A stretch of DNA of 64,000 nt from Candidatus Aminicenantes bacterium (GCA_026991555.1 JALXBI010000050.1:245-64244), one strand, 5' to 3'; shown: positions 2,229-17,960, counted from the first letter of the stretch. Made by a program: numbers and translations. The notes: generated by a model from the letters alone, not told the origin.

Positions 2229-2471
2229 ATATCTCCCCTGGCGCCTATGTAATCCACATAGATGGAGTTTTCCTCCTCTTCCATCCAGAAAATTACCCTG
2301 TATTTCCCAACTCTGAACCTCATATACCCTTCCCATTCTCCAACCATCTTTTTCACCCTAAGAGTTTTAAAATCACCCTCAGCAAGGAGCAGGAGTCGTT
2401 GTTTGATTTTTTATCTCTGTGATGGGGCAAGTCTCTTCAGAAAACTGGCTGCTCGTGGGTGAACTTTTACT

Positions 2472-2663: not shown

Positions 2664-2827
2664 TCCTCTTCCTCCAGATACATTATACCATCTTCCCACC
2701 ATGCACGAAAAGGCACTGAGCCTCTCTTCCCTAAAAAGCGAAAAGGGAACAGACCATGAACCAAAGGTTCGGGCAAATTTTATTTGATTTTTTCATACAT
2801 TATCATATAATATATGAGGAAGTAATC

Positions 2828-3055
2828 ATGGTGAGAAAAACTGTTAACATTAGCGAAGATTTAATAAAAGAACTCAAGGTATATGCCAGGAAGGAATCCA
2901 GGGATTTTTCCAGCGCATTGAGGCACATCTTAAGGATAGGTCTTCTTGCCCTTCAGAACCCGGAACTTACAGCCAGGGAAATAATGGATATTCTGGAAGC
3001 AAAAGCGGAACTGGAAGAAGGTCTGATAGAGGAATTTACCCTTGAAGATATTTGA
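2828..3055 (+). CDS. ribbon-helix-helix (CopG-like) antitoxin
   Basis: ATG at 2828 (MVRKTVNISEDLIKELKVYARKE...). Short and basic, and it overlaps the following RelE-like gene by 14 nt. Confidence 0.55.
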   Translation: MVRKTVNISEDLIKELKVYARKESRDFSSALRHILRIGLLALQNPELTAREIMDILEAKAELEEGLIEEFTLEDI

Positions 3056-3269
3056 AACGAGAAAATTTCGGCAGTTGAGGAAAAAAATCAGGGATGATAG
3101 GGAGAAGCAAGCCCTTAAGAGGGCAATATTGGAGATCGTCCAGAACCCCCTGGCTGGCAAGAAGTTGAAGGGGGAATTCAAGGAATTTCGCAGTTTCCGA
3201 TATTTTTCCAGGGGCCAAGAAAGGAGACTTATCTATAAATACGAAAATCAGGCGCTTTACCTTATCTAA
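3042..3269 (+). CDS. relE: RelE/ParE-family toxin, C-terminus apparently truncated
   Basis: MKIFETRKF...LEIVQNPLAGKKLKGEFKEFRSFRY...RLIYKYENQALYLI matches the RelE/ParE pattern, but it stops before the usual C-terminal ighRkdvY segment. The last codons lie inside repeat block A1. Confidence 0.55.
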   Translation: MKIFETRKFRQLRKKIRDDREKQALKRAILEIVQNPLAGKKLKGEFKEFRSFRYFSRGQERRLIYKYENQALYLI

Positions 3270-3329
3270 AATTTTCTCTACTGGAGTTCTACATTCTATC
3301 AGTCCATTTTGCCCTGGAAGTAAAGTTCT
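3230..3329. repeat. split direct repeat copy A (38-nt block 3230-3267 and 31-nt block 3299-3329)
   Basis: Block 1 is tatctataaatacgaaaatcaggcgctttaccttatct. Block 2 is tcagtccattttgccctggaagtaaagttct. Both recur at 4284-4387. Confidence 0.7.
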
Positions 3330-3342
3330 GTGTCCCCAATCA

Positions 3343-3360
3343 GGGACAGGTCCGATTTTG
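3343..3360 (-). repeat. single inverted copy of the GGAC-CT-GTCC short-repeat family
   Basis: gggacaggtccgattttg is the near reverse complement of aaaattcggacctgtccc, which is repeated at 53251-53327 and 57560-57776. Confidence 0.5.
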
Positions 3361-3400
3361 ACCTTCCAATAAATCGGGTGACTCATGATAAAATAGTCTT

Positions 3401-3679
3401 ATGAAGGAAAAGAGATTAAAGGAGCTTATAGAAAAAAATAAGCCTCTTTTCTGGTGGATTAAGGAACCGGATAAAATAAGCGAAGAACTGGTGGTTGAGA
3501 CTATTCTAAACTACGGAACCAGAGAGAGCGTAAAGGAGCTTTTTGAAATTCTTGGAACGGAAAGGGTGGCGGAGATATTCTTTTCTCAGATAAAAAGAAA
3601 GAGGAAGAATTACCATCCGAGAACCATAAATTTTTTCACCCTTTATTTCAGCCATGCACGAAGAGATTCTAACACCTGA
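3401..3679 (+). CDS. small partner protein of the AbiEii-like toxin (putative antitoxin)
   Basis: ATG at 3401. Overlaps the downstream nucleotidyltransferase gene by 26 nt. Basic C-terminus. Confidence 0.3.
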   Translation: MKEKRLKELIEKNKPLFWWIKEPDKISEELVVETILNYGTRESVKELFEILGTERVAEIFFSQIKRKRKNYHPRTINFFTLYFSHARRDSNT

Positions 3680-4268
3680 ACAGAGCGAACTCCTCCCCTT
3701 GCTGAAGATGTTTTCCGAAGAATTTTATCTTGCTGGAGGAACTGCAATAGCTCTTTACCTCGGCCATAGAAGGTCCATTGATTTTGACCTTTTCACGAAA
3801 AAACTTCATCCCATGAGGGTAAAGAACAGGATAAAAAAATCAGGGTTCAATGTGGATAGCATAATATTTGAAAGCAGCGAGGAGCTCCACTTGGTGGTAA
3901 ACTCTGTCAAAATAAGTTTTGTGGAGTTTCCCTTTGATATTCCTCCTCCTGTGCTTTTCAAAGACATCATTACCCTTCCCTCCCTTTTAGATCTTGCAGC
4001 GATGAAGGCTTACGCTCTGGGAAGCAGGGCTAAATGGAAGGACTATGTGGATTTTTATTTTCTTTTAAAATACAAATTCACGGTGGAAGAAATCATAAAA
4101 AGGGCAAAGGAGATATTCTCAGGCTATTTCAACAGTAAGCTTTTCCTTGAACAATTGGCTTATTTTGAGGATATAGATTACAGCGAAAATGTGGATTTTA
4201 TAAAAGAGGCTCCTTCTGATGAGGAGATAAAGGAATTTTTAAGGGAGGTTTCCCTGCAGGATTTTTAG
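3654..4268 (+). CDS. AbiEii/AbiGii-family nucleotidyltransferase toxin (type IV TA / abortive-infection family)
   Basis: The N-terminal YLAGGTAIALYLGHRRSIDFDLF motif is typical of this nucleotidyltransferase family. Confidence 0.6.
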   Translation: MHEEILTPEQSELLPLLKMFSEEFYLAGGTAIALYLGHRRSIDFDLFTKKLHPMRVKNRIKKSGFNVDSIIFESSEELHLVVNSVKISFVEFPFDIPPPVLFKDIITLPSLLDLAAMKAYALGSRAKWKDYVDFYFLLKYKFTVEEIIKRAKEIFSGYFNSKLFLEQLAYFEDIDYSENVDFIKEAPSDEEIKEFLREVSLQDF

Positions 4269-4283
4269 CCCCCTTGCAAAGCC

Positions 4284-4387
4284 TATCTATAAATACGAAA
4301 ATCAGGCACTATACCTTATCTCCTTTGGTCCCAGGGAGAAGATTCTTTTTATAATCTCAGTCCATTTTGCCCTGGAAGTAAAGTTCT
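4284..4387. repeat. split direct repeat copy B (block 4284-4321, 36/38 identical to A1; block 4357-4387, 31/31 identical to A2)
   Basis: Direct comparison with 3230-3329. The internal spacers differ (31 vs 35 nt). Block B2 overlaps the stop of the minus-strand gene 4357..6132. Confidence 0.7.
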
Positions 4388-6132
4388 ATGCCCTTTACCG
4401 CCCGTAGGCCGTCGGCTATGGCTGATATGGCATCCGCCACCCTGTTGGCCACATCTCCTCCTGCGAATATCCCTTCCACCGAGGTCATCTGCCGGTGGTT
4501 TACCTTTATTCTTCCCCTTTCCACTTCCATTTTCTCGGCTATTTCCGGGGGAAGGAAACTCAGGTCAGCCTGCTGGCCTATGGCAACTATTATCCTGTCC
4601 ACCACAAGCTCGTATTCCTCCCCTTCTATAAGAACAGGTTTGGGCCTCTTTCCTGGCCCCTGGTCCACCATTTTCGCCTTTCCGTAAACCAGTTTGACTT
4701 TACCTTCAGGGGCATCCTCTACCCTTATGGGGATAATCTTTTCCCATATCCTCACCCCTTCTTCCTCTGCCCCTTCAATTTCCTCGTGGTCTGCGGGCAT
4801 ATCCACCTTGCGGCGGCGATAGGCTATGGTAACTTCGGCTCCCAGTCTGCGGGAAACCCTGGCAGCATCCATGGCCACATCCCCTCCACCTATGACCACC
4901 ACCTCTTTCCCAACCTCCACAGGTTCTTTGAAGTTAATCTTTCTGAGAAAATCTATGGCATAGATTACATTAGGATGGTCTTCTCCGGGAACCCCTAAGG
5001 TCCAGGGTTTCATAAGTCCAACCCCTATGTATATGGCATGGTGTTTTTTCATGAGTTCCCTGAACCTCTCCTGGTCCACGAAATAGTTAAGCTTAAGTTC
5101 CACACCCTGGCTAAGTATGAAATCCACTTGTTTTTTAAGGGATGGGAAGGGGAAGCGGTATTTGGGAATTCCCGCCATGGTCATGCCGCCCGCCTCAGGC
5201 ATGGCCTCGTAAACGGTTACCTTGTATCCCCGAAGGGCAAGGTAGTAGGCGGCGGTGAGCCCCCCAGGGCCTGCCCCTATTATTCCCACGGATTTGTCCT
5301 TGGGCTCTGCCTTCTTAACCTTTATTACCTGCTTCAGGTCAGAGAACCTTTCAGTGGCAAACCTCTTGAGCCATCTTATGGCAACGGGGTCGCCCTCGTG
5401 GCCTAAGGAACAATAGGATTCGCACCTTCTGGTGCAGACCTTTCCGCAGAGCTCCGCAAAGGGGTTGTTCTCATACATGATGTTCACGGACCTGGCGTAT
5501 TCCCCAGAGGCTATGGCCCTTATGTAATCGGGTATGTGCATGCGGTCAGGACATCCGGCTATACAGAGGCCACATCCCACGCAGCGGTCCGCCTCCCTGC
5601 GGGCCTCCTCCTCGGCATACCCCAGGACCACCTCGGCAAAGGTCTCCACCCTTTCTTCCGGAGGAAGTTCCCTCATGGGAACCCTGTGGTAATCGGTGAA
5701 ACTGTGCTCCTTGTCCTTCCTGTATCCCTTTTCCTTTTTCTCAAATCCCTTTATGTGATAACCGGGTATGTAAACGAAGTCGTCGGGGGTTTCCCTTACC
5801 CAAATGTATTCGTTGGTCATTCTCAAGGAGGTGGTGGGACACGAGTCCACGCAAAGGCCGCACCAGCAACACCTTCCGTAATCAATTCTGGGACGGAAGC
5901 CTGAATCCCCCTTCTTGGGCTCTATTCCCTCCACAGGGACCATATCTATGGCTTCATTGGGACAGACTGCGGCGCATGTTCCGCACCCTATGCATTTTTC
6001 AAGGTCATTTACATGGAATCCCCTGTATCTTTCGGCAGCCTCCCTGGAAACCTTGGGAACGAGGATGGTATGGGGCCTTTTGGCTATCTGCCTCCAGGCA
6101 CCTAAGGGTTTTAAAACTTCTTTGAGTCCCAT
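4357..6132 (-). CDS. fusion protein: NuoI/MbxN-like 2x[4Fe-4S] ferredoxin plus GltD/NfnB/SudA-like NAD(P)H-dependent FAD oxidoreductase
   Basis: N-terminus has CIGCGTCAAVCP and CCWCGLCVDSCP (a NuoI-type dicluster). Next come CVGCGLCIAGCP and CGKVCTRRCESYC (GltD N-terminal Fe-S region). Then GIIGAGPGGLTAAYYL (FAD Rossmann fold) and VVVIGGGDVAMDAA (NAD(P)H Rossmann fold). RBS AGGGAGG lies upstream. Confidence 0.7.
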   Translation of the reverse strand: MGLKEVLKPLGAWRQIAKRPHTILVPKVSREAAERYRGFHVNDLEKCIGCGTCAAVCPNEAIDMVPVEGIEPKKGDSGFRPRIDYGRCCWCGLCVDSCPTTSLRMTNEYIWVRETPDDFVYIPGYHIKGFEKKEKGYRKDKEHSFTDYHRVPMRELPPEERVETFAEVVLGYAEEEARREADRCVGCGLCIAGCPDRMHIPDYIRAIASGEYARSVNIMYENNPFAELCGKVCTRRCESYCSLGHEGDPVAIRWLKRFATERFSDLKQVIKVKKAEPKDKSVGIIGAGPGGLTAAYYLALRGYKVTVYEAMPEAGGMTMAGIPKYRFPFPSLKKQVDFILSQGVELKLNYFVDQERFRELMKKHHAIYIGVGLMKPWTLGVPGEDHPNVIYAIDFLRKINFKEPVEVGKEVVVIGGGDVAMDAARVSRRLGAEVTIAYRRRKVDMPADHEEIEGAEEEGVRIWEKIIPIRVEDAPEGKVKLVYGKAKMVDQGPGKRPKPVLIEGEEYELVVDRIIVAIGQQADLSFLPPEIAEKMEVERGRIKVNHRQMTSVEGIFAGGDVANRVADAISAIADGLRAVKGIELYFQGKMD

Positions 6133-6142
6133 TTTTTCCTCC

Positions 6143-7258
6143 CTATCTTTCCATTTCAGGCGGACAGGTCTGAAGGGAAACCATTATGGGCGCAACATCC
6201 GCTATGTTCTGCCCAACCAGCAACCTTTCAAGAAGGGTTATGCCGTGGACGAAGGAGGGTCCGTTGACATGAACCCTTCTGGGCTTGTCAGAGCCGTCGC
6301 TCACCATGTAGTAGCCGAATTCCCCCCTGGTGGCCTCGGATTTAACATAGGTTTCCCCAGGTGGAATTTTCCAGTAAAGGACATTGGGGAGCCGGGCAAG
6401 GAATTCTCCCTTGGGCATTTTCTCTATAATTTGCCTTATAAGGTTTATGCTCAGGTCTATTTCCCTTCGCCTTACAAGGAGCATGGCCCAGGCATCGCAG
6501 CCATCCTCTGTTATCACATCAAAATCAAGGTATGGATAAGCCTCGTAAGGATGGTCCTTCCTCACATCGTAGGGGAAACCACATGCCCTGGCCACAGGAC
6601 CGGTTATCCCCATCTCGTCCACCCAGTCCCTGGGAATTTTCGCAAGCCCCTTCAGCCTCTTCTGCACCACGGCATTTTCCATTATTATCTCGTCGTATTC
6701 AGGAAGCCTCTGCTCTATAATGTCCATTAACTTAAGAACCCTCTCCTCAAAGCCCTCGGGAAGGTCCTTCCTTACCCCTCCTGGCATTATGTAAATGTGA
6801 TAAATTCTTCCTCCTGTGAGTTCCTCAAAGAGGTCAAGGATGTAATCCCTGTCCCCAATTCCCCACTGCACAGGGGTGGAAAGTCCCATGGAGCCTGCTA
6901 TCCCTCCATACCACATGATGAACATCTGGAGGCGGGAAAGTTCAAGGACTAAGGTCCTTATCCACTTTGCCCTTTCAGGAATCTCTATGCCGGCCAGTTC
7001 CTCAAGGCCCCTGGCAAAGTTTTCCTCGTTGGTGTCAGGCTCTGGAACGCAAATTCTGCAGACTAAGGGGAAGCTTTTTATGTAAATACGCCTTTCCATT
7101 AATTTCTCAAATCCCCGGTGGAGGTATCCTATGTGGGTTTTTGCCCAGGTTATAGTATCCCCTTTAAGGAGAACCTCCACGCTCATGTTTCCGGTTACCC
7201 CTGGATGCTGGGGACCTATGAAGAGTCTTACTTCTTCCTTGCTCATTTTCTTCTCCAT
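6143..7258 (-). CDS. NuoD/[NiFe]-hydrogenase large-subunit homologue (MbxL/MbsL-like), incomplete NiFe ligand motifs
   Basis: FIGPQHPG...HIGYLHRGFEKL is the NuoD/EchE signature. The N-terminal motif is CRIC, followed by VPEP rather than the usual xxxH. The C-terminus ends QTCPPEMER instead of DPCxxCxxH/R. Confidence 0.75.
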   Translation of the reverse strand: MEKKMSKEEVRLFIGPQHPGVTGNMSVEVLLKGDTITWAKTHIGYLHRGFEKLMERRIYIKSFPLVCRICVPEPDTNEENFARGLEELAGIEIPERAKWIRTLVLELSRLQMFIMWYGGIAGSMGLSTPVQWGIGDRDYILDLFEELTGGRIYHIYIMPGGVRKDLPEGFEERVLKLMDIIEQRLPEYDEIIMENAVVQKRLKGLAKIPRDWVDEMGITGPVARACGFPYDVRKDHPYEAYPYLDFDVITEDGCDAWAMLLVRRREIDLSINLIRQIIEKMPKGEFLARLPNVLYWKIPPGETYVKSEATRGEFGYYMVSDGSDKPRRVHVNGPSFVHGITLLERLLVGQNIADVAPIMVSLQTCPPEMER

Positions 7259-7785
7259 TCGTCGTATTGCTCGGAAATCTGCTTTCTTATGATTATCCCG
7301 CTCTTGGGCTCCCTTTCCCCGAACTTCTCCATGGAATACTTCAGGGTATCAAAATCCCTTCTCATGGGTGGAATATCGTCCCAGTCCTCAAGGATGAGTT
7401 CCTCATGCTGGGTGGGATTCCCCTCAAAATCCACCCCGAACATCTCGTGAATCTCCCTTTCGTAGGCCTCTGCCTGGGGCCAGATTTTGTATATGGTCTG
7501 AAACTTAGGAGCCTCCCGGGGAATTTTCGTCTTAACCAATATGTTGTGCTTCTTTGAGGGATTCCACAGGTTATAGACCAGTTCAAATTTCCCCTCCTCT
7601 ATCCAGTCCACGCAGGAAATCATCACCAGGGTTTTATACCCCTCGTATTCTTTAAGGTAAACAAGGAGAGGAATGAGGTCCTTTTCTGTGGTCCCGACCA
7701 GGGCCAGATCCTCTCTTTTTTCCTGGCTCTGGAGAATCTCAAATTTTTCCTTCAATTTATCCAAAATCTCCATTTTCCACCTCAC
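7243..7785 (-). CDS. NuoC/MbxK-like subunit
   Basis: 180 aa, NADH dehydrogenase 30-kDa subunit-like. Sits between the small- and large-subunit genes. Confidence 0.7.
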   Translation of the reverse strand: MRWKMEILDKLKEKFEILQSQEKREDLALVGTTEKDLIPLLVYLKEYEGYKTLVMISCVDWIEEGKFELVYNLWNPSKKHNILVKTKIPREAPKFQTIYKIWPQAEAYEREIHEMFGVDFEGNPTQHEELILEDWDDIPPMRRDFDTLKYSMEKFGEREPKSGIIIRKQISEQYDEWRRK

Positions 7786-8360
7786 CAGTTATAATTGGGC
7801 ATTCGCCAGTTCTTTATTATTTTCCTCTGGTTCTCCCTATACCAATCCAGGTTTTCAATGTATTTTTTCCACCCATCTGCCTTTCCGCTGTCTATAAGCT
7901 CCTGAAGCCTCTTAAACCCGGCTAAGATGGCCTCGGGTCTGGGCATACATCCCGTAATCCAGACATCCACCGGAAGGTAAAGGTCCAGTCTGTTTATGGC
8001 ATTGTAGGAGTCGTAATACATTCCCCCGTTTATGGGACAGGCCCCTAAGGCCACCACATATTTGGGGGATTGCATCTGCTCGTAAACCCTTATGACCCTC
8101 TTAAGGGTTTTCACCGTGAGGTATCCGCTTATTATAAGAACATCTGCCTGACGGGGGGTCCCCACCATCCTCATGCCCAGCCTTTCGGCATCAAACCTGG
8201 AGGTGAAGGTGGGACGAAGTTCTATGGAACCGCAACCTGTCCCGTAGGCCACCACCCACAGGGACCTCGCCCTTGCCCAGTCGTTTATTTTTCTGAAAAC
8301 CCCACCGTAGGTCATTTTTTCTGGCTTTTCGTTCAGGAAATAATTTTTATCCTTTCCCAT
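7782..8360 (-). CDS. NuoB/hydrogenase small-subunit homologue (MbxJ-like), [4Fe-4S]
   Basis: GCGSIE...GTPRQADVLIISG...ALGACPINGG is the NuoB/group-4 small-subunit pattern. Confidence 0.8.
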   Translation of the reverse strand: MGKDKNYFLNEKPEKMTYGGVFRKINDWARARSLWVVAYGTGCGSIELRPTFTSRFDAERLGMRMVGTPRQADVLIISGYLTVKTLKRVIRVYEQMQSPKYVVALGACPINGGMYYDSYNAINRLDLYLPVDVWITGCMPRPEAILAGFKRLQELIDSGKADGWKKYIENLDWYRENQRKIIKNWRMPNYNW

Positions 8361-8363
8361 CTC

Positions 8364-9275
8364 TCACCTCACCAAATAAATCCTTACAAGGTCAATGAGC
8401 CCAAGCAGGCTTGGCCAGGTCCAGAAGAAAAGCACAGATTGCTCCAAGCGAAACCTGGGGAAAACATTGGTTATGAAAAGGGGCCACAGGAAAATCACGA
8501 AGGTTTTAACGAAAGCCCAGAGCAAATTGCTGGCCCCTCCTAAGAAAAGGTTCATGAAAAGGAGGTATTTGGCCACAGCGAAAACACTCCTTCCGGAAAA
8601 CATGTAGGAAAGGAAGGTGGAGCTATATTCTGTAGGAGGTCCTATGGCTATTTCCTGGGGAGCGAGAACCACCTGAAAGGGATAGGAACCCATCATTCCC
8701 AGGAGGCTTATGAAGGCCGCGGCTGCGGCAAAGGGATGGGTAAAGAGGTGCCAGTGGAGAATTCCTCCCTGCTGTGCCCTTACTATTCCTTCAATGGAGG
8801 TGGTCTTGTCCGCCACCATTAGGACCACCACAGAGATGACGAAGGGAAGTTCGTATCCCGCCATCTGGGAAAGTCCCCTGGTAACCCCTATGGGGGCGTG
8901 GGGATGACCGCTCTCTGCAGCCCCAAGGGCCATTCCTAAGCATCCCAGAACCATGAAATACATGAGGACTATCAGGTCACCGCCGAAGGAGAAATTGCTA
9001 AGATAGGGACTTCCCACCACAATGGGAACCAGAAGGAAGGTTCCGGCGCCTCCTACCAAGCGAAACATTGGGGCTAAGTAAAACATAACCCCGTGGGAAA
9101 TGGCAGTTTTCTTTCGGAATAGCTTCCAAAGGTCAATGAAATTCTGCCATATGGTCGGTCCCCTTCTGTTCTGCATCCTGGCGGTTATTTTCCTTGAAAC
9201 TCCGCCTAAGAAAAGCCCATAGGCAATCCCGCCCAGAAGGGCTAAAAATGCGTAAAATATCTTTGCCCACATCAT
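8364..9275 (-). CDS. NuoH/HyfC/MbxM-like membrane subunit
   Basis: RKITARMQNRRGPTIWQNFIDLWKLFRKK is the NuoH signature. Multiple TM segments. Confidence 0.75.
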   Translation of the reverse strand: MMWAKIFYAFLALLGGIAYGLFLGGVSRKITARMQNRRGPTIWQNFIDLWKLFRKKTAISHGVMFYLAPMFRLVGGAGTFLLVPIVVGSPYLSNFSFGGDLIVLMYFMVLGCLGMALGAAESGHPHAPIGVTRGLSQMAGYELPFVISVVVLMVADKTTSIEGIVRAQQGGILHWHLFTHPFAAAAAFISLLGMMGSYPFQVVLAPQEIAIGPPTEYSSTFLSYMFSGRSVFAVAKYLLFMNLFLGGASNLLWAFVKTFVIFLWPLFITNVFPRFRLEQSVLFFWTWPSLLGLIDLVRIYLVR

Positions 9276-12200
9276 TTCACCCCTGTAAAGGCATAAAGGA
9301 TAATGATTGAAATGAGAATCACATAGGCGGCGTAGGTGTTAACATCCCCTGTGTAAATTCTCCTTCCCATCTCAGCAAAGGCCCCAATCCATTCGTAAAT
9401 TCCCCTCCATATTTTGCTCACTAAAGGATAAATCAGCCATTTCACCGCCCTGCGGAAGTGGTCGTAAAGACCATAACCGAAGTGAAGGTCCTGCGGGGTG
9501 CGGGGAACCTCCCCTGAATAGCCCACATCCAGCTGACCTACCTTTCTTATTCTGGCCGAGGTGAGGGCGAAGAATACCAGGGCAAGGAGGAAGGAGCCCA
9601 CAAAGAAAACCATGAGGAAGAAGGCATTCCAGTGGCCGAGTTTAGAAACAATCCCCAGGGCCTTATGATAATGGAAACCTGGGTTTTCCATACCCGGAAT
9701 ACCGGAAAGAACTTTGTTTATCGGATTGAGAAGAAGATTGGGGAAAGCACCCAGAACTCCAAGAGGAATTAAAAGGATTACCTCCACCAAGGCTATTGGC
9801 CAGGGGGCTTCCTTTACATTCTCGTTTTCCTCCTGGAGCTGGCCCAAGAAAACCGCATGGAGAATCTTAAAGCAGTAAAGGAAGGCTAAGGTGGAGGCGA
9901 GAAAAGCCACCACGGTTATAAAAATCCATCCCTTCTCAATGAGGGCCGAATAAAGGAGCCATTTTGCTGCGAATCCCGAAAGGGGAGGAATCCCGGCTAA
10001 GGCTATTATGGCAAGAAGGGTGGCAAAGAAGGTAAGGGGCATTCTCCTTATAAGCCCTCCCATGTGGGGCAGGTAGGAGGTTCCTACCCTGTAAATTATC
10101 CCTGCTGCTGCCACGAATAGAAGTCCCTTGAAAATGAAATGGTTTACCGTATGGTAAAGGGCAGCGTTCCATCCTAAGGGAGTAAAAAGGGAAAGCCCTA
10201 TAAGGATATAGCCCACCTGTCCCACGGAGGAATAGGCAAGGAGTTTTTTAAGATCGTCCTGAAACACTGCAAGGAGGGTCATGAAAAAGGCGGTCAGTGC
10301 TCCAGCCCATCCAAGAAGGTAACGAAAACCTGCCCCGGAAAGAGCAGTAAGCACATAGAGGAAAACCAGGCCAGAGCCGAAAACCCCCATTTTGGACATT
10401 ATCCCGGAAAGCAGGGGCGTAAATTCGTCGGGACTTTCCCCGTAGGCATCCCTGGCCCATATGTGGAGCGGGGAGGTGGCCATTTTAACCAGGAAGGCTA
10501 AGGAAATAAGGACCGCTGGAAGAAGGCCGTAAAATTTACCCGGAGCCAAACTCAGGGAAGGAAGGAGGTAAATTCCCCCGAGCATGGCATAAGCCCCTGC
10601 TGCGGAAAATACCGCATAAATCCAGGCAGCCTTTTTCCCTTTTCCCATGTTTATAAGGAGGAAGGAAGCCCAGCTCATTATCTCCCAGAAAACGAATACC
10701 GAAAGCCAGGTGGTGGAAAGGACAAGCCCGGCCATGGAAAAGAGAACAACCAGGTAGGCAGGATAAAAGGATGAGGAAAGTTTTTTAGAGCCGGGATAGG
10801 TGGCCAAAAGAAGGACCGCACCTCCGAAAAGAACAAGGGCAAGGAAAAACCCGTGAAGGTCGGGTTTTATGTGCGGATAGAGGGAATATATCCCGTAGAC
10901 CAAAACCCCCAAGGAGGCTATCCACTGAAGCAGCCTTGAGGCTCCAAGGAAGTAAACCAGAAGGGAAATTCCAAGAAGGAGCAAAATTTCTGGTTTTACC
11001 GGAATGTGAATTTTATCGGTGAACATTCCCCAGACCACTGGCACAGAAGCAATAAGAATCAGGGAAGATATTAATGGAGAGGCCAGATTTCTTCCCACCT
11101 TCTTTCCTTCCCCCTCGGAGGCTATCCTGTAAAACCGGAAGTAATAAACCACCTCGGCCAGGGCCCCGAGAAGAACCAGCCCCACAACCCAGGAATAATT
11201 TCTGGGAATAGCGAAGATGAGAAGTATCTTGGCCCAGAATCCCGGGAAGGGAGGAACCCCTGCAATGGAGAAAACCGATGTGGAAAAGGAAAACTTGAAT
11301 ACGGGATTGGAGGCAAGAACACCCCTCCAGCCATCAATTTCCCTTTCCTTCACATTGTCCGCAAGGAGAAAGAGGGAGGACTTGGCGAAGGAGTGATTAA
11401 AGACCAGAAGGACCATGGCAAGGCCCATCATGAGCCTTGAGGACGAAGAGAACGAAGGATTCAGGAAAAATCCGGCTGCCAGAATCAGAAGTCCCAGCTG
11501 GGCCACCGAGGAATAACCGAGGAGCCTTCGGACATCCCTCTGCCTCCAGGCGAAAAACTGGCTTACTAAATAGGTCATCCCTCCAAAGAGAAGGGCCAAG
11601 TGGAAAAAGGAAAACAGGGGAAGATAATGGGCCGTTTTTACGAAAACCAGATAAAAGGCCTTTACCGCCGCCCCTGCCAGAAGGGCCACCACCACAGGGT
11701 CTGCCCCCTGATAAACATCTAAGGCCCAGCCGTTTACAGGGAAAACCTCCAGTTCAATAAGAAGCCCGGCAAGAATCATAAGGGTAATCAGGGCCAGAAC
11801 TGCGGAGGAAATTCCCCCGGCCAGCTTGCCGGCTATATCCAGCATGTTCAGGCTTCCGGTGGCCTTGTAAAGAAAAACCACTCCTAAAAGTATGAAGGTG
11901 GAACTTATGGAACCTATAACCATGTATTTAAAGGCAGCCTCAAGGGCCCTCTCATCCTTAGAAGAAGCCACAAGCCCGTAGGCTGCTATGGAAGTAATTT
12001 CCACGAAAACGAACAGGTTGAAAAAGTCTCCGGTGAAGCTTATCCCCGTGGCACCTAAGGAGAGAAGGAGAAACAGGATGAGAGCCTTCCCTTCGGGCTG
12101 GGGAAGCCCCCTTACGAACCAGTGTATAGCACCTAAAAGGGCAATGGTGAAAATTAGAAATCCTAAGGCAGCCTCCGCTTTTCCTACCAGCAGGTTAATT

Positions 12201-12415
12201 CCTATGGGAGGAGGGAAACCGCCAATCTTTACCAGGATGGGTTTTGCGATTTTGCCTGTGATAAAGCCATAGAAATTAAGCCCTGAGACTAAAAAGTCAA
12301 AGGCAAGGGTGAGGAAGAAGAAAACCCTTGCCCATATTCTGTTGTAAACCTGAAGTATGCCTATGAAGAAGGCCGAAGCTAACGTGACTCCGATTATAAT
12401 TATGGGATTTACCAT
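9272..12415 (-). CDS. fused tandem antiporter-like subunits (MrpD/NuoN-like plus MrpA/NuoL-like, equivalent to MbxH-MbxH')
   Basis: 1047 aa. There are two successive proton-pumping-subunit cores: LLGYSSVAQLGLLILA around residue 300 and LLAYSSVGQVGYILIG around residue 730. Each has about 14 TM segments. Confidence 0.75.
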   Translation of the reverse strand: MVNPIIIIGVTLASAFFIGILQVYNRIWARVFFFLTLAFDFLVSGLNFYGFITGKIAKPILVKIGGFPPPIGINLLVGKAEAALGFLIFTIALLGAIHWFVRGLPQPEGKALILFLLLSLGATGISFTGDFFNLFVFVEITSIAAYGLVASSKDERALEAAFKYMVIGSISSTFILLGVVFLYKATGSLNMLDIAGKLAGGISSAVLALITLMILAGLLIELEVFPVNGWALDVYQGADPVVVALLAGAAVKAFYLVFVKTAHYLPLFSFFHLALLFGGMTYLVSQFFAWRQRDVRRLLGYSSVAQLGLLILAAGFFLNPSFSSSSRLMMGLAMVLLVFNHSFAKSSLFLLADNVKEREIDGWRGVLASNPVFKFSFSTSVFSIAGVPPFPGFWAKILLIFAIPRNYSWVVGLVLLGALAEVVYYFRFYRIASEGEGKKVGRNLASPLISSLILIASVPVVWGMFTDKIHIPVKPEILLLLGISLLVYFLGASRLLQWIASLGVLVYGIYSLYPHIKPDLHGFFLALVLFGGAVLLLATYPGSKKLSSSFYPAYLVVLFSMAGLVLSTTWLSVFVFWEIMSWASFLLINMGKGKKAAWIYAVFSAAGAYAMLGGIYLLPSLSLAPGKFYGLLPAVLISLAFLVKMATSPLHIWARDAYGESPDEFTPLLSGIMSKMGVFGSGLVFLYVLTALSGAGFRYLLGWAGALTAFFMTLLAVFQDDLKKLLAYSSVGQVGYILIGLSLFTPLGWNAALYHTVNHFIFKGLLFVAAAGIIYRVGTSYLPHMGGLIRRMPLTFFATLLAIIALAGIPPLSGFAAKWLLYSALIEKGWIFITVVAFLASTLAFLYCFKILHAVFLGQLQEENENVKEAPWPIALVEVILLIPLGVLGAFPNLLLNPINKVLSGIPGMENPGFHYHKALGIVSKLGHWNAFFLMVFFVGSFLLALVFFALTSARIRKVGQLDVGYSGEVPRTPQDLHFGYGLYDHFRRAVKWLIYPLVSKIWRGIYEWIGAFAEMGRRIYTGDVNTYAAYVILISIIILYAFTGVK

Positions 12416-12762
12416 TTCAACTCCTTGTATTCTTCAATTTCAAGGGTTTTCTTTTTGGAATACATGAGCATTACAATGGAAAGGGCCACTGCAGTCACCG
12501 CCACCCCTATGACTATAGCCGTAAGGACCAGAGCCTGGGGAAGGGGATCCACCACCTTGGAGGATGTGTTAACCAGAAGGTCCTTGATGTTGACGATGGG
12601 AGCGGTCCTTCCGCGGATGAAACCTAATGAAATGATGAGCACATTAACTCCCGTGTCCATAAGGGAAAGCCCTATAACTATCTTCATTATGTTCCTTTTA
12701 ACCAAAACCGCATAAAGCCCTATGAGTATCAAGAGTATTGAAGCGACGAAGAAAGCCATCAT
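12409..12762 (-). CDS. MrpC/NuoK-like small membrane subunit
   Basis: 117 aa with three TM segments and the MnhC-like sequence pattern. Confidence 0.65.
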   Translation of the reverse strand: MMAFFVASILLILIGLYAVLVKRNIMKIVIGLSLMDTGVNVLIISLGFIRGRTAPIVNIKDLLVNTSSKVVDPLPQALVLTAIVIGVAVTAVALSIVMLMYSKKKTLEIEEYKELKW

Positions 12763-13451
12763 TCCTCCTTGGTGGTATTTATCATATCGGTTATAAGGCC
12801 CGAAAGTTCGGAGCCCACTTTAAACCCCACCGCCACATATATGAGTGGAATTACACCGGCAGAAAAAAGGCGGTTCCACTGACCCAGGGGAATTATGTTG
12901 TTGGCCAGAAAACTCCCACCCCAGATGAGGCCTGCAAAACCTATAAGAACGAAGGTAATTCCTGCAAGTCCCTCCACCGTGGAAAGGGCCCTGTGGTTGG
13001 GATGGAAGGTAAAGTGGGCAAGGAGCATCAGCATTACTGCAGAGGCAATGACCGTTCCTCCCTGGAACCCTCCCCCTGGGGTCAGGTGCCCGTGAATGAA
13101 TATGTAGGCACCGAAAAGAATAAGGAGAGGATAAAGGGTCTCGGAGGCAGTTTTGACGATGAGACTGGCCTCCCTTCTTTCGTATCTTCTCCTGCAACGG
13201 CATGTGGAAAGGAGGAAAGCCAGGGCAGTAGCCGCTAAGAAAAGCACGGTTACCTCGCCAAGGGTATCAAATCCCCTGTAGTTTACCACTATGGAGGTTA
13301 CCAGGTTGGAGCCACGGTTCTCCTCAATTCCCCTGTCCACATAATGCTTGGATACCCCCCACTTCTCCTTTCCGAAGGGAAAGGAGGAGGTTATTTTGGC
13401 CATAAAGAACCCGAGAAGGATGAGGAAAATTACCGCCAGCCATTTTCTCAT
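12759..13451 (-). CDS. MrpB/MnhB-domain membrane subunit
   Basis: LVTSIVVNYRGFDTLGEVTVLFLAA is the MnhB signature. Confidence 0.65.
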   Translation of the reverse strand: MRKWLAVIFLILLGFFMAKITSSFPFGKEKWGVSKHYVDRGIEENRGSNLVTSIVVNYRGFDTLGEVTVLFLAATALAFLLSTCRCRRRYERREASLIVKTASETLYPLLILFGAYIFIHGHLTPGGGFQGGTVIASAVMLMLLAHFTFHPNHRALSTVEGLAGITFVLIGFAGLIWGGSFLANNIIPLGQWNRLFSAGVIPLIYVAVGFKVGSELSGLITDMINTTKEE

Positions 13452-13693
13452 TTCTCATACCTCTCAGTTTTTCTTATGGCGATTATGAAAATAAGGGTGG
13501 TAAGTCCTGCACCTATGGCAGCTTCGGTCATGGCCACATCAGGAGCCTGAAGGTAAAGGTAAACTATGGAAGCCACCAAGGAAACGAAACCCGCTGCCAC
13601 CACCGCTGCCAGAAGGTCCTTGGTCTCCACAGCATATATGGCCAGACCCAGCATGAGGAAAAGAAGGAAAAGCATGAAATATTCAAGAATCAT
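13448..13693 (-). CDS. MbhD/MbxD-like small membrane subunit (MrpB N-terminal-like); start chosen at the internal Met
   Basis: The ORF track extends to 13798 but overlaps mrpG out of frame. MILEYFMLFLLFLMLGLAIY...AIGAGLTTLIF resembles a hydrogenase subunit-D/DUF4040 protein. Confidence 0.45.
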   Translation of the reverse strand: MILEYFMLFLLFLMLGLAIYAVETKDLLAAVVAAGFVSLVASIVYLYLQAPDVAMTEAAIGAGLTTLIFIIAIRKTERYEK

Positions 13694-14039
13694 TTTCCGC
13701 CTCCTTGAGTCCCCTTTCCTTATCCTCGGCATACCTGTCAAGAACAGAACCCTTGGCAAGGGGAATGCCTTTATTGTGGGAGGCCCTGGCCAGGGCATGG
13801 GAAGAGACAGGATTGGTAAGAAGGATGAAAAGGGAAATTATGGCCGTTTTAAAGAACCACTGGGGGTGGTAAATGCCAACCCCCATTATAAGGGAAAGGG
13901 CTCCTAAGGTTGTGGCCTTTGTTCCTGTCTGCATCCTGTTGTAAACATCAGGCATTCTGAGGAGCCCTATGCCTGCAAGAAACAGGAATAGGGACCCCAC
14001 CAGTATAAGAAACTCACCCAGGGCACGGTAAACCATCAA
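13683..14039 (-). CDS. MrpG/MnhG-like subunit
   Basis: RMPDVYNRMQTGTKATTLGA is the MnhG signature. Confidence 0.65.
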   Translation of the reverse strand: MMVYRALGEFLILVGSLFLFLAGIGLLRMPDVYNRMQTGTKATTLGALSLIMGVGIYHPQWFFKTAIISLFILLTNPVSSHALARASHNKGIPLAKGSVLDRYAEDKERGLKEAENDS

Positions 14040-14293
14040 ACACCTCCTTCTAAATACCGGGCAAGGGCTATAACCCCCAGGAAGGCAAGAACCGCATAAA
14101 CCAGGGCCACATCAAGGTAAATTGCCCTGTGGAAGATCTGGGAGAAAAGAACTATCATGGCCGTGGTTATGGTGGTGGCTGTATCCAGTCCCACTGCCCT
14201 GTCGGAAATGGTAGGCCCCTTCACAATCCTGTAAACCGCCAGCAAAGTGGCCAAACTAACAAGGGCGAAAACTATTATAAGGAGATTACTCAA
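14036..14293 (-). CDS. MrpF/MnhF-like subunit
   Basis: 85 aa, VYRIVKGPTISDRAVGLDT pattern. Confidence 0.65.
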   Translation of the reverse strand: MSNLLIIVFALVSLATLLAVYRIVKGPTISDRAVGLDTATTITTAMIVLFSQIFHRAIYLDVALVYAVLAFLGVIALARYLEGGV

Positions 14294-14771
14294 AGATCAC
14301 CTCCAGAAACCTCTCAAATCCCTTTACTATTTCCTGGGTGGCCGCTTCTATGTCCGGGCTTTTAACATCTATCCAGTGAATGTAAAGATACTGACCAACA
14401 ATATCAACGGAAAGGGTGCCCGGGGTCAGGGTTATGGAGTTGGCCAAAGCGAGTTTTCCTGCATTGGTTTTGAGCTTGGTTTTCACCTTCACTATACCCG
14501 GATTTATGGGAAGCCGGGGATTTACGACCCTGCTTGCCACATCCAGGTTTGCCTTTACCATGGCATAGAGGAAGTAGAAAAGGTAGATGAAGGCAAAAAC
14601 ATACCTTTTTGGCTGAAGCCATTTTTTAGGCTCAGGACCAGCCACCCCCGGGGCTATCATGCTAATGACCGCAGCGGTTATAAGGCCTACGGAAAGCTCC
14701 TGAGGGTCAAAGCTTCCGGTCATGGCCACCCAGAGGACGAAAAGCACAACTGTTGAAACGGCAACCTTCAT
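14286..14771 (-). CDS. MrpE/MnhE-like subunit
   Basis: 161 aa with two N-terminal TM segments and an MnhE-like C-terminal domain. Confidence 0.6.
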   Translation of the reverse strand: MKVAVSTVVLFVLWVAMTGSFDPQELSVGLITAAVISMIAPGVAGPEPKKWLQPKRYVFAFIYLFYFLYAMVKANLDVASRVVNPRLPINPGIVKVKTKLKTNAGKLALANSITLTPGTLSVDIVGQYLYIHWIDVKSPDIEAATQEIVKGFERFLEVIFE

Positions 14772-15397
14772 GCCACACTCCCTTTTTTAATCTTGTAGGC
14801 TAAATACTCTATTTCCGATGCTATTTCCACATAATTTATGACGACCCCTGGCGGGGTTTCTATTCCCTGAAGGGCAAAACTGAGAATTCCCCTTATCCCT
14901 GCCTTGGAGAGTAGGTTTACCGTCTCCTGAAGCCCCTCTGGGGGGATGGCAAGGACAGCAATTTGTGGTGCCTTTTCCCTGTAAAAGTTCTCAATTTCCC
15001 CTATATGTAAAACCTCCACCCCGTTTATCCTCTTTCCGATCTTTTTAGGGTTTCTGTCAAAGGCGGCCAGAACCTTAAAATAAGGTATCTCCCTCAGGTG
15101 GTGGATGAGGGCCCTGCCCAGGTTTCCGGCTCCCACAATTACAACTTTTATGGGTTCGTTTATTCCTATTATCTCCTCTATGGCCTTAGCGAGCTCCCCT
15201 ACCCTGTAGCCCTTCCCCCTGATGCCAAATTCACCAAAATAGGAAAGGTCCTTTCTCACCAAGGAGCCTGAGATACCGCAGCTTCGGGCAAGATCGGAAG
15301 ACTGGATCCATTCCTGGCCCTCAGCCTTAGCCTGGCGGAGACACCTGAGATAGGTGCTTAATCTCCTTATGCTAACTTCAGGTATGGTTATAGCCAT
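14768..15397 (-). CDS. rex: redox-sensing transcriptional repressor Rex (NADH/NAD+ sensor), first gene of the operon
   Basis: N-terminal wHTH IRRLSTYLRCL. Rossmann fold VVIVGAGNLGRAL plus a Rex C-terminal domain. Overlaps mrpE by 4 nt. Confidence 0.85.
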   Translation of the reverse strand: MAITIPEVSIRRLSTYLRCLRQAKAEGQEWIQSSDLARSCGISGSLVRKDLSYFGEFGIRGKGYRVGELAKAIEEIIGINEPIKVVIVGAGNLGRALIHHLREIPYFKVLAAFDRNPKKIGKRINGVEVLHIGEIENFYREKAPQIAVLAIPPEGLQETVNLLSKAGIRGILSFALQGIETPPGVVINYVEIASEIEYLAYKIKKGSVA

Positions 15398-15473
15398 TTT
15401 TCTTGTGAAAGTTCTAACTTAAACAAGGTGACTATGATACCACAAGATGAAAAAAAATCAAGGGTTTTTGTTT

Positions 15474-15501
15474 TTGACAATATCTATTAAAATATTATAA
15501 T
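15474..15501 (+). promoter_or_regulatory. sigma-70-like promoter (TTGACA, 16-nt spacer, TATAAT) for the histidine-kinase operon
   Basis: Exact consensus hexamers at 15474-15479 and 15496-15501, about 20 nt upstream of the HK start. Confidence 0.45.
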
Positions 15502-15518
15502 TTCTGCCCATAAAGGAA

Positions 15519-16499
15519 ATGCCAATGATTGAGCGCGATGGTCATAGCTGCCAGCTCATAATGGAAGTGCTGAATTCCTTACCGATAGGTATAGGAATAT
15601 TTGACAACAACAGGAAACTTCTCCTTTCAAACCAGGAATTCAGAAAGCTTCTCAAAAGCATTGAAAACCTGGAAATATTCTTCAAGGAGCCCCCAGCGGT
15701 TAACGAACTGTTCATATCCTCTATGAGCAAGATAACTGGTTTCTCCTCCTACAGAACACCCCATGGATGGTTCGTAATAACCAAGGACATAACCAGCAAA
15801 CATACAGATGAAAGCGAAGACAGAAAAATCCTTGAACTATTGGACCACCTATTCTCCATGGTGAGGCACGAGGTAGGGAATCCCATAAACACCATCAAAT
15901 TCTCCCTATCTGTCATGAAGGAAGATATAGACAGTTTTTCCAAGGAGAAGCTTCTGGAATACATAGATCGTCTCCTTGAGGAAATAGAACAGCTTGAAGA
16001 AATTCTCCGGGCAATGAAACGCTACAGCAATTACGGCTATGTAGTGATCAAAAAAGTTAATCTGAATGAAACTTTAAGAAAGGTCCTGAGAATTATGGAA
16101 AACGAGATACTGATGAAGGACATAAGCCTGAAAAGCAATCTTCCCTCCCGGGAAATCTTTGTAAAGGCTGACCCTACAGCACTAAATCAGGTGCTTACGA
16201 ACCTGTTGAGAAACTCCATAGAAGCTCTCGAAAACCACCAAGGTTACAAAAAACTCATAGAAGTCTTCGTTAAAACTGACGAGGAGTTTGCCCGCATATA
16301 CATAAAGGACACAGGTCCTGGGATTCCAGAGGAAATAAGGGAGAAGATTTTCTTTCCATTTTTCTCAACCAAAAGGAACGGTTCAGGGATGGGTTTAACC
16401 ATATCCAAGGGACTTATAACAGCCATGGACGGAAAGCTGGACATAAGAAATCATCCCGATGGAGCAATTGCCGAGGTATCTCTCAAATTGTGGAAATGA
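15519..16499 (+). CDS. soluble sensor histidine kinase (N-terminal PAS-like domain); true start probably the ATG at 15525
   Basis: H-box HEVGNPINTIKFS, N-box NLLRNSIEA, G-boxes DTGPGIP and GSGMGL. No TM segments. Confidence 0.8.
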   Translation: MPMIERDGHSCQLIMEVLNSLPIGIGIFDNNRKLLLSNQEFRKLLKSIENLEIFFKEPPAVNELFISSMSKITGFSSYRTPHGWFVITKDITSKHTDESEDRKILELLDHLFSMVRHEVGNPINTIKFSLSVMKEDIDSFSKEKLLEYIDRLLEEIEQLEEILRAMKRYSNYGYVVIKKVNLNETLRKVLRIMENEILMKDISLKSNLPSREIFVKADPTALNQVLTNLLRNSIEALENHQGYKKLIEVFVKTDEEFARIYIKDTGPGIPEEIREKIFFPFFSTKRNGSGMGLTISKGLITAMDGKLDIRNHPDGAIAEVSLKLWK

Positions 16500-17857
16500 A
16501 GGTGAAACACAGGGCAAAAATATTGCTTATAGAGGATGATAGGAACTTCCTCATGCCCCTGAAGGAGTTCTTAGAATCCAGGGGATTTGAAGCTCACATA
16601 TCATCTAAGGCGAGGGACGCCATTGAATTATCCAGACACGAGCTATACGATATGTTCATTATAGACCAGAATTTACCGGATATGGAAGGTATAGAACTGG
16701 CTAAGGAATTGCTTTACTTTCAACCTGGAGCCGCCACACTGATAATGACCGCCTATCCCGACGTAAAGAAGGCAGTGAGAGCTATGAGATTAGGGGTGAT
16801 AAACTACATGATAAAACCCTTTGCCCCTGAAGAGCTTCTCGATGAAATCATCAAGACCCTTGAACTCAGAGAATATAAAAACCTGCGGGAACTCCATAAT
16901 TTTTCCCTAAGAAAGGAAAGGGAAAAAATTTGCATTATAGGCAAATCCAGATGGGCTCAGGAGATTCGGGAATTCATTGAAATGGCAGCTAACTCCCTTG
17001 ATACCCCTGTCCTTTTAACCGGCGAAACTGGCACGGGAAAATCCTTAGTGGCAAGGGCTATCCACTACAATAGCCCTATCAGGGAAAAACCGTTTTTAGT
17101 AGTGAACTGCGCCGCAATTCCAGAATCCCTTCTTGAAGCGGAACTTTTCGGTTTTGAGAAGGGGGCATTCACCGGAGCTGAAAAAAGCCGAAAGGGGGTA
17201 TTTGAGCTGGCCAATGGGGGCACTCTATTCCTGGACGAGATCGGTGACATGCCTATTCCAATGCAAGCTAAAATTCTCCATGTGCTGGATTCAGGAAGGA
17301 TAAGGAGAATAGGAGGGGAGAGGGAGATAAAGGTTAAGGTGAGAATTATTGCTGCCACCAACAAAAACATAGAAGAACTGGTCAAAAAGAAGGAGTTCAG
17401 AAGTGATCTTTACTATCGCCTGGCGGTATTGAGCTTTGAACTCCCTCCCCTCAGAAACCGAAGAGAGGATATAATCCCTCTTGCCGAACACTTCCTGAGA
17501 CAATTGTCCAGGGGAAACCATTATGAACTATCTCCCGAGGACAAAGAGGCGCTGGTCAATTACGATTTTCCAGGCAATGTAAGGGAACTGAGAAATATAA
17601 TAGAAAGAGCCTTAATTCTGTCACGCAGAAAAGGGGTTCTCAGTATAAAGGAACTAATCAATAGATCACCTTTCCGGGAAAACATCAGGAAAGATGAATC
17701 CGGGACTTCTGAGAGATTTCCTCCGCTTGAGGAAGTCATAAAAGAACACGTTCATAGGGCCCTTAAGATCACCCGGGGCAACAAGACCGAGGCGGCAAAA
17801 TTACTGGGTATTTCCATCTCCACATTAAAAAGATGGTTAAAAAAATGGTCAAATTGA
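16490..17857 (+). CDS. sigma-54-dependent response regulator (NtrC family: REC, AAA+, Fis-type HTH)
   Basis: REC domain with D at ILLIEDD...DQNLPDMEG. Walker A GETGTGKS. GAFTGA motif (FEKGAFTGA). C-terminal HTH. Confidence 0.85.
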   Translation: MEMKVKHRAKILLIEDDRNFLMPLKEFLESRGFEAHISSKARDAIELSRHELYDMFIIDQNLPDMEGIELAKELLYFQPGAATLIMTAYPDVKKAVRAMRLGVINYMIKPFAPEELLDEIIKTLELREYKNLRELHNFSLRKEREKICIIGKSRWAQEIREFIEMAANSLDTPVLLTGETGTGKSLVARAIHYNSPIREKPFLVVNCAAIPESLLEAELFGFEKGAFTGAEKSRKGVFELANGGTLFLDEIGDMPIPMQAKILHVLDSGRIRRIGGEREIKVKVRIIAATNKNIEELVKKKEFRSDLYYRLAVLSFELPPLRNRREDIIPLAEHFLRQLSRGNHYELSPEDKEALVNYDFPGNVRELRNIIERALILSRRKGVLSIKELINRSPFRENIRKDESGTSERFPPLEEVIKEHVHRALKITRGNKTEAAKLLGISISTLKRWLKKWSN

Positions 17858-17932
17858 TCCGAAGAAGTCATATTTGAGCGGCTCAATTTGACCTATGGTT
17901 ACTTATCGCCGCTTCTCATAAGACTCCAGGTT

Positions 17933-17948: not shown

Positions 17949-17960
17949 TAATAAGAAACG

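Follow-up and report, generated by a model that had tools for sequence, protein, structure and literature searches.

We analysed a 64,000-nucleotide stretch of a Candidatus Aminicenantes genome (GCA_026991555.1 JALXBI010000050.1:245-64244), referred to below as the window, which contains a 13-gene operon predicted to encode a membrane-bound respiratory complex of the Mrp antiporter/complex I superfamily. The last subunit of this complex combines a NuoI-like domain with a module of the NfnB/GltD/SudA type that has motifs for binding of flavin adenine dinucleotide (FAD) and NAD(P)H. All 13 genes lie on the minus strand, run from position 15397 to position 4357 as delimited in the initial annotation of the window, and are so tightly packed that neighbours either overlap by 4–16 nt or are separated by 3–10 nt. 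Gene identities were taken from Pfam and NCBIfam profile matches, complemented by matches to solved structures, and the profiles agree with the gene-by-gene assignments made initially. In the order of transcription the operon comprises the following genes:

14768–15397, minus strand: rex, NADH/NAD+-sensing repressor, first gene (Pfam Put_DNA-bind_N and CoA_binding; Rex model NF003995 of NCBIfam, 218 bits where the cutoff is 126)
14286–14771, minus strand: MrpE/MbsA-like membrane subunit (Pfam MNHE, 3e-41)
14036–14293, minus strand: MrpF/MbsB-like subunit (Pfam MrpF_PhaF, 6e-19)
13683–14039, minus strand: MrpG/MbsC-like subunit (Pfam PhaG_MnhG_YufB, 3e-26)
13448–13693, minus strand: MbhD/MbsD-like subunit of 81 aa, corresponding to a piece of MrpA (Pfam MbhD, 6e-22)
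12759–13451, minus strand: MbsE-like subunit (Pfam MbhE domain plus MnhB domain)
12409–12762, minus strand: MrpC/NuoK/MbsG-like subunit (Pfam Oxidored_q2, 1e-25)
9272–12415, minus strand: fused antiporter-like subunits MbsH (N-terminal half) and MbsH' (C-terminal half), 1047 aa (two Proton_antipo_M stretches)
8364–9275, minus strand: NuoH/MbsM-like membrane anchor of the peripheral arm (Pfam NADHdh)
7782–8360, minus strand: NuoB/MbsJ-like subunit, predicted to hold the proximal [4Fe-4S] cluster (match to 6u8y_J, 8.8e-67)
7243–7785, minus strand: NuoC/MbsK-like subunit (Pfam Complex1_30kDa, 3e-30)
6143–7258, minus strand: NuoD/MbsL-like large subunit with a vestigial NiFe site (match to 6u8y_L, 3.7e-102)
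4357–6132, minus strand: MbsN/NuoI domain fused to an NfnB/GltD/SudA-type module, 591 aa (Pfam; full-length match to NCBIfam PRK13984)

The start of the MbhD-like gene was moved from the beginning of the open reading frame (ORF) at 13798 to an internal ATG at 13693 that is preceded by GGAGG, and the shortened product agrees with the 81–83 aa of its counterparts in related loci. The duplicated antiporter module described in the initial annotation is real, as the 1047-aa protein contains two Proton_antipo_M units.

The terminal gene encodes a true fusion of a NuoI-type domain with a GltD/NfnB-type module, as had been proposed initially. According to Pfam, the NuoI part spans residues ~1–130 (two [4Fe-4S] clusters) and is followed by a Fer4_20 domain (residues 161–264, 5e-27) and a Pyr_redox_2 domain (residues 281–575, 9e-32). 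The C-terminal ~440 residues (~150–591) align end to end with the NADPH-binding NfnB of Thermotoga maritima (4ylf_B; 283 bits, 2.5e-83), including the YRR motif, and more weakly with true GltD (211 bits, ~1e-61). Best relatives of this module in the PDB are long chains in which the same module is embedded (9n5u ‘NfnA’, 9bov, and 8oh5, which we take to be a bifurcating Stn-type complex). Two adjacent genes joined by a frameshift were considered and ruled out by at least 120 full-length homologues and by an uninterrupted tblastn match in 80 genomic loci. The exact protein encoded in the window is already present in public databases.

Comparison of 22 fusion sequences from several phyla revealed that the 16 cluster cysteines, both glycine motifs for dinucleotide binding (GxGxxG) and the tetrad starting at Y438 (YRRR) are invariant. 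In the C-terminal module these positions comprise the cluster ligands C184/187/190/194 and C229/233/237/241 and the nucleotide-binding motifs G286-x-G288 and G415-G-G417. Based on these motifs the fusion protein should carry four [4Fe-4S] clusters plus FAD, and together with the cluster of the MbsJ-like subunit these should form a five-cluster wire that leads from the nucleotide site to the chamber of the complex. In Rossmann folds, a basic end of strand β2 generally goes with NADPH, and the invariant YRRR behind β2 of the second fold suggests NADPH as the nucleotide bound. In the NuoI domain, the sequence of the second cluster motif is R-C-C-W-C. Its adjacent cysteine pair (window positions 5866–5871, residues 88–89) is invariant in the same 22 sequences and provides one cysteine more than is needed for a standard CxxCxxCxxxCP motif.

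Affiliation with the MBS branch and the catalytic site

The six subunits that were compared with solved structures (H, H', M, J, L and the N domain of the fusion) all have their closest relative in MBS (formerly Mbx), the membrane-bound reductase for sulfane sulfur of Pyrococcus furiosus (6U8Y). The large subunit matches MbsL (6u8y_L) with 345 bits (3.7e-102), compared with 240 bits (2.4e-70) for Thermus thermophilus Nqo4 and 155 bits (2.6e-44) for MbhL. Likewise, the MbsJ-like protein scores 228 bits against 6u8y_J (8.8e-67), with the next best match at no more than 140 bits (9e-40), and the MbsM-like protein 125 bits against 6u8y_M (3.7e-35) versus 61 bits for MbhM (6cfw_M, 1.2e-15). In the double antiporter protein, 6u8y_H is the best match for residues 6–256 and 6u8y_X (H') for residues 552–1040, and the two halves reach 232 and 240 bits to MBS versus 186. 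For the NuoI domain of the fusion, 6u8y_N is the best match in the PDB.

The residues around the presumed catalytic site tell the same story. The MbsJ-like protein has only three cysteines, C43, C108 and C138, which align without gaps with C28, C93 and C123 of P. furiosus MbsJ. All 66 bacterial homologues that were compared share this three-cysteine arrangement with a shortened loop of the same length as in P. furiosus, and all 66 have glycine at the position of the non-ligand C25 of the archaeal protein. In the large subunit, C70 and C365 (C85 and C385 in P. furiosus) are the two cysteines that remain of a NiFe site. They are invariant in 76 of 76 homologues, as are the surrounding motifs CRICVPEPD and CPPEMER, and the other two ligand positions, i.e. 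the second cysteine of each motif, are occupied by glutamate throughout. Equivalents of the quinone-headgroup residues H38 and Y87 of Nqo4 are V/I and V, respectively, and the NuoB-like subunit has a single cysteine where complex I has a tandem pair. The three-cysteine proximal cluster and the two retained cysteines of the L subunit have been tied to catalysis and family identity of MBS by Yu et al. 2020 (PMC7684303), who also found that both L-subunit cysteines are dispensable for activity of the P. furiosus enzyme.

One cysteine of the large subunit has no archaeal counterpart. C67, three residues ahead of the vestigial C70, is invariant at 76 loci, such that the sequence C-R-I-C (window positions 7051–7062, residues 67–70) replaces L-R-I-C of P. 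furiosus MbsL. The CRIC element may act as a redox-active dithiol adjacent to the proximal cluster.

The subunit set, that is MrpE-F-G, D, E, G, H, H' and a NuoH-like protein followed by NuoB-, NuoC-, NuoD- and NuoI-like proteins, is the one that defines MBS, and both the set and the gene order are the same as in archaeal mbx/mbs operons. These sequence comparisons place the bacterial operon in the MBS (Mbx) branch of the Mrp/complex I superfamily, and its initial assignment to Mbx/MBS rather than Mbh was correct. Readings as a hydrogenase or a quinone reductase fail, and the MBS reading holds, because the operon encodes a three-cysteine cluster and a vestigial NiFe site and its products lack the quinone-site histidine and tyrosine. 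An energy-converting [NiFe] hydrogenase of the Mbh or Ech type, or a common Mrp antiporter located by chance beside unrelated nuo genes, would draw on the same Pfam families, yet either is so improbable that it can be set aside: the former is ruled out by glutamate at two of the four NiFe ligand positions (RICVPE, CPPEMER) in 76 of 76 homologues and disfavoured by the far weaker match to MbhL, the latter is ruled out by 12 genes being kept together in the same order across phyla.

With P. furiosus MBS the window operon thus shares two antiporter-like subunits and a full Mrp module, the three-cysteine proximal cluster, the two vestigial NiFe cysteines and the lack of quinone-site histidine and tyrosine. 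It differs in that MbsN is not free-standing but forms one protein with an FAD/NAD(P)H module of the NfnB/GltD type, which brings two more [4Fe-4S] clusters, in the glycine at the non-ligand position C25 of MbsJ, in the extra L-subunit cysteine (CRIC), in the combination of H and H' in a single polypeptide, in its bacterial host, and in putative regulation by Rex. Archaeal MBS is regulated by SurR.

Complex I (NDH-1) has homologous Q- and P-module subunits (NuoB, C, D, H, I, K and L/M/N), and, as in complex I, a pyridine nucleotide is the likely substrate. Unlike complex I, the window operon lacks NuoEFG, has an NAD(P)H module of unrelated origin and a full Mrp E/F/G module, and its subunits are devoid of the quinone-binding histidine and tyrosine and of the tandem cysteines. 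The NfnB/SudA/GltD family, represented by T. maritima NfnB (4YLF) and P. furiosus NfnI (5JCA), has the eight cluster cysteines, the FAD and NAD(P)H motifs and YRR in common with the C-terminal module. In contrast to these proteins, the module in the window has no NfnA partner, is fused to a NuoI-type domain with two clusters and would be tethered to a membrane complex.

Occurrence of the fused family and features of the Aminicenantes lineage

Full-length homologues of the fusion protein number at least 120 (577–619 aa, 54–93% identity), and a scan of species genomes detected relatives in 276 of them, distributed over many phyla. The locus comparisons reported here refer to the best 80 loci of that scan. 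The closest genomes are metagenome-assembled genomes (MAGs) of Aminicenantes, with 93% identity. Carriers include members of Aminicenantes/Acidobacteriota, Calditrichota, Bacteroidota, Ignavibacteria/Chlorobiota, Krumholzibacteriia and Marinimicrobia. Of the loci fetched, 45 extend as far as mrpE, and every one of them has the same order of 12 genes. A short Sulfurovum contig contains the nuoD-like gene and the fusion gene only.

Given this distribution, the statement in the initial annotation that such a coupling does not appear to have been described did not hold. An NCBIfam model covers the fusion in full length (NF010590/PRK13984), and Degli Esposti 2015 reported mbx-like operons of Thermotoga and proteobacteria in which a gltD-related flavoprotein takes the place of NuoI and provides an NAD(P) site, often with rubrerythrin at the end of the operon (PMC4758237). 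Directly 3' of the fusion gene, a rubrerythrin-family gene is present in 11 of 68 related loci for which downstream sequence was available (L013:11868-12323, L035:11798-12256, L062:11810-12262 and 8 others), though not in the window. The gltD-type fusion and the rubrerythrin gene following it in these 11 loci identify the family of the window with the mbx-like family of Degli Esposti. Bacterial mbx-like or Mrp-Mbx operons in the literature include those of T. maritima, Mesotoga, Magnetococcus and Endoriftia; for T. maritima MBX, the link to the fusion family of the window rests on the literature and not on sequence. Genome papers routinely annotate bacterial ‘Mbx’, while those on Caldithrix and Pelobacter do not describe the complex. 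In a 2022 study of T. maritima, MBX is a putative complex of 13 subunits with ferredoxin as the assumed donor, and mbxA was up-regulated 4.4-fold when S0 was added (PMC9431562). The architecture itself has been known from the literature since 2015. Compared with other bacterial mbx-like operons, the window adds a lineage-specific link to Rex, encoded by the first gene, and the fused H-H' subunit, and it has neither a rubrerythrin nor a DHO_dh-like neighbour.

Rex, with winged-helix and Rossmann domains recognized by Pfam and NCBIfam, is indeed the product of the first gene of the operon, which overlaps the mrpE-like gene by 4 nt and hence is translationally coupled to it. The initial description of the operon as Rex-led is valid for the window and the Aminicenantes-type clade but not for the family as a whole: 36 loci have enough upstream sequence to be informative, and rex comes first in seven of them, all from this clade, while the other 29 have no rex. 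Other Acidobacteriota/Thermoanaerobaculia and Krumholzibacteriia have a gene for an ArsR-family regulator in this position (HTH_5, 112–122 aa, with a conserved cysteine in ‘ACVxEL’; L041:777-1127, L029:538-906, L062:772-1110, and also L052, L056 and L061). Hence, different lineages have swapped the leading regulator. The fusion of H and H' is similarly restricted, the two being one polypeptide in six inspected loci of Aminicenantes, Acidobacteria and Krumholzibacteriia and split into proteins of ~490 and 620 aa in six others that were inspected.

Two elements were recognized upstream of rex:

15434–15461, minus strand: promoter-like element TTGATT-16-TATCAT with TG extension (consensus scan)
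15403–15426, no strand assigned: candidate operator located between the rex ATG and the -10 element, an imperfect palindrome of 24 nt that reads TTGTTTAAGTTAGAACTTTCACAA on the minus strand (half-site scan and conservation)

The promoter-like block is kept in the close relatives L001 and L003. A Rex operator of the canonical form TTGTGAA-N4-TTCACAA (TTGTGAANNNNTTCACAA, up to three mismatches) did not turn up near the operon, and the two matches far away from it are at chance level. What we found instead is the non-canonical palindrome at 15403–15426, whose half-sites resemble those of Rex but are 10 nt apart instead of 4. It is the sole site in the 64-kb window with at most two mismatches to TTGTGAA/TTCACAA at spacings of 2 to 14, and it is present at the same position in L001, L003 and L004, in one of them with symmetric changes. 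By our estimate, a search over all spacings should yield ~2–3 chance matches per 64 kb, and the support for the palindrome hence comes from its position and conservation and not from its rarity. On these grounds it is a putative Rex binding site.

A further gene accompanies the operon in many lineages. A DHO_dh-like gene (PF01180, ~290–330 aa, 56–89% identity between loci) is attached to it in ~38 of the 80 loci, although not in the window. It is located directly before mrpE in loci of the Bacteroidota type (L057:10-891, L024:4-882, L025:8-886) and directly after the fusion gene in those of the Calditrichota/Ignavibacteria type (L043:12214-13206, L047:11787-12776, L016:11885-12868). Its product might serve as a 14th subunit or provide a second outlet for electrons. 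A GltD-like module beside a dihydroorotate dehydrogenase-like protein is reminiscent of dihydropyrimidine dehydrogenase.

Electron donor, acceptor and direction

The best explanation of these features, in which we have moderate confidence, is that the complex passes electrons from NAD(P)H via FAD and four clusters to the three-cysteine proximal cluster and from there to sulfane sulfur, and that this reaction is coupled to ion pumping. Donor, direction, acceptor and pumped ion are all inferred. The FAD of the C-terminal module would be reduced by NAD(P)H, and electrons would then travel via the two [4Fe-4S] clusters of the module and the two clusters of the NuoI domain to the proximal [4Fe-4S] cluster of the MbsJ-like subunit. 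One iron of the latter might be free for chemistry because the cluster has only three cysteine ligands. The L, J and M subunits would form the chamber in which a sulfane-sulfur compound, i.e. polysulfide or a similar molecule, is reduced, and the reaction would power movement of H+ or Na+ via the H-H' and Mrp modules. In the Aminicenantes lineage, Rex would hold the operon off until NADH builds up, a mode of control that fits disposal of reducing equivalents by an NADH-relieving enzyme. That pyridine nucleotides directly feed or leave the complex, as suggested in the initial annotation, is a reasonable conclusion.

If NAD(P)H is the true donor, the complex would represent a second, independently assembled coupling of pyridine-nucleotide oxidation to an Mrp-type ion pump, positioned between MBS and complex I. 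The range of MBS-type sulfur respiration would then also comprise many uncultured bacteria of sediments, among them Aminicenantes, Calditrichota, Bacteroidota and Ignavibacteria.

Energetics and the response of T. maritima mbxA to S0 speak for NAD(P)H-driven reduction of sulfane sulfur. If ferredoxin as donor provides MBS with 42 kJ/mol per two electrons (PMC8165549), ~12 kJ/mol per two electrons would by our estimate be left with NAD(P)H, which equals the value quoted in the same paper for the membrane-bound hydrogenase (MBH), an enzyme that does conserve energy. Several points weigh against the model. The energy gained by passing electrons from NAD(P)H to polysulfide would be small for a pump equipped with two antiporter modules. 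Genome papers assign ferredoxin:NAD(P)+ activity or ferredoxin-driven sulfur reduction to the bacterial complex, and our literature search found no biochemical characterization of a bacterial complex of the fused type. Furthermore, Rex senses NADH and the module looks NADPH-type, and the extra invariant L-subunit cysteine (CRIC) and the DHO_dh-like gene in ~38 loci hint at a chemistry unlike that of archaeal MBS. Finally, an AlphaFold2 model of the fusion protein, built from the 22-sequence alignment, has a predicted local distance difference test (pLDDT) score below 50 for residues 1–148 and is too poor to judge domain packing or cluster geometry.

It is rather unlikely, but in keeping with how bacterial Mbx was formerly read, that the complex is an Rnf-like ferredoxin:NAD(P)+ oxidoreductase, in which reduced ferredoxin docks on the NuoI domain, NAD(P)H is made at the NfnB-type module and ions are pumped. 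This function was assigned by Degli Esposti 2015 (PMC4758237), in work on Mesotoga (citing Schut 2013) and for Caldanaerobacter. NfnB-type modules are reversible, and the NuoI domain corresponds to the ferredoxin-side subunit of archaeal MBS (PMC7684303). The archaeal prototype on which the assignment was modelled later proved to be a sulfane reductase, though (PMC7684303). Electrons would moreover bypass the proximal cluster, and yet its three-cysteine site, the L-subunit cysteines and the subunits of the chamber are invariant in 66–76 homologues. There would be no point in such strict conservation if electrons went no farther than the distal end, to and fro between ferredoxin and NAD(P)+, and we thus favour their reaching the MBS site. 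Coupling in the superfamily also seems to be tied to chemistry at the proximal site, and it would be surprising if Rex relieved the repression of an NAD(P)H-producing enzyme when NADH is high.

Of similarly low probability, in our view, is a complex with the same architecture that uses an acceptor other than sulfane sulfur at the J/L/M site or that runs in reverse, such that the ion gradient drives reduction of NAD(P)+. A membrane quinone could accept the electrons, as could an organic disulfide or persulfide on which the extra CxxC of the L subunit would act, or a substrate supplied by the DHO_dh-like partner of other lineages. The idea gains from the invariant additional cysteine, which places CRIC beside the vestigial NiFe site where archaeal MbsL has no such element, and from the DHO_dh-like gene being attached in two positions. 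Occurrence of the family in many non-thermophilic lineages, e.g. Bacteroidales and Ignavibacteria, and the low driving force that polysulfide would offer point in the same direction. A quinone is at odds with the lack of canonical quinone-binding residues and with a NuoB-like subunit without the tandem cysteines of complex I, and a role of the DHO_dh-like protein with the absence of its gene from the window. As P. furiosus MBS is active without its two L-subunit cysteines (PMC7684303), cysteine-based chemistry in this subunit becomes less compelling. Record titles indicate that sulfidic hydrothermal sediments are the source of many of the MAGs, which would suit sulfane sulfur better.

Flavin-based bifurcation or confurcation, in which the NfnB-type FAD would divide electrons between, or merge them from, the MBS chain and another partner, e.g. 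ferredoxin, appears very unlikely. The closer similarity of the C-terminal module to NfnB than to true GltD and the larger proteins that embed the module in its best PDB relatives would be in line with such a function. A second electron branch, NfnA/PyrK-like or other, is nevertheless missing from the operon, and an NfnA partner (PyrK-like, with FAD and [2Fe-2S]) was not found among the window ORFs scanned either (~1–40.7 kb of the 64-kb window). GltD-type modules can also act as plain two-electron inputs for NAD(P)H, as they do in glutamate synthase and dihydropyrimidine dehydrogenase.

Returning to NAD(P)H-driven reduction of sulfane sulfur, we tentatively extend this model from the window to the fused family, with somewhat less confidence than we place in the model itself. 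The family may represent a pyridine-nucleotide-driven MBS that acquired an NfnB-type input independent of NuoEFG, reduces sulfane sulfur or a related substrate at the three-cysteine cluster with assistance by the bacterial CxxC, pumps ions, and in some lineages includes a DHO_dh-like 14th subunit.

Genes surrounding the operon

The operon adjoins a flank of low G+C content (positions 1–4300; 0.37–0.40 compared with ~0.48 elsewhere). This flank contains a gene for a ParD-like antitoxin (2756–3055) and a DUF6922 plus AbiEii toxin-antitoxin pair (3401–4268), AbiEii being the sole PADLOC match. Two further ORFs of 200 and 533 aa (28–630 and 627–2228) matched neither Pfam nor PADLOC. The flank is probably a mobile or defence islet.

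On the other side, a perfect TTGACA-16-TATAAT promoter (15474–15501) is oriented divergently from rex. The region (15474–19022) continues with genes for a histidine kinase, a σ54 response regulator of the NtrC type and another response regulator that contains DUF4388. Close relatives differ in the sequence upstream of rex and appear not to share this neighbourhood. A second pair of σ54 response regulator and histidine kinase is encoded at 25807–32537 beside genes for type IV pilus or type II secretion (T2SSF and two T2SSE ATPases). They are followed at 34925–37857 by genes of lipopolysaccharide core synthesis, namely those for LpxK, a Kdo transferase and a heptosyltransferase. The pilus/secretion and lipopolysaccharide genes are consistent with a diderm host of the Acidobacteriota type.

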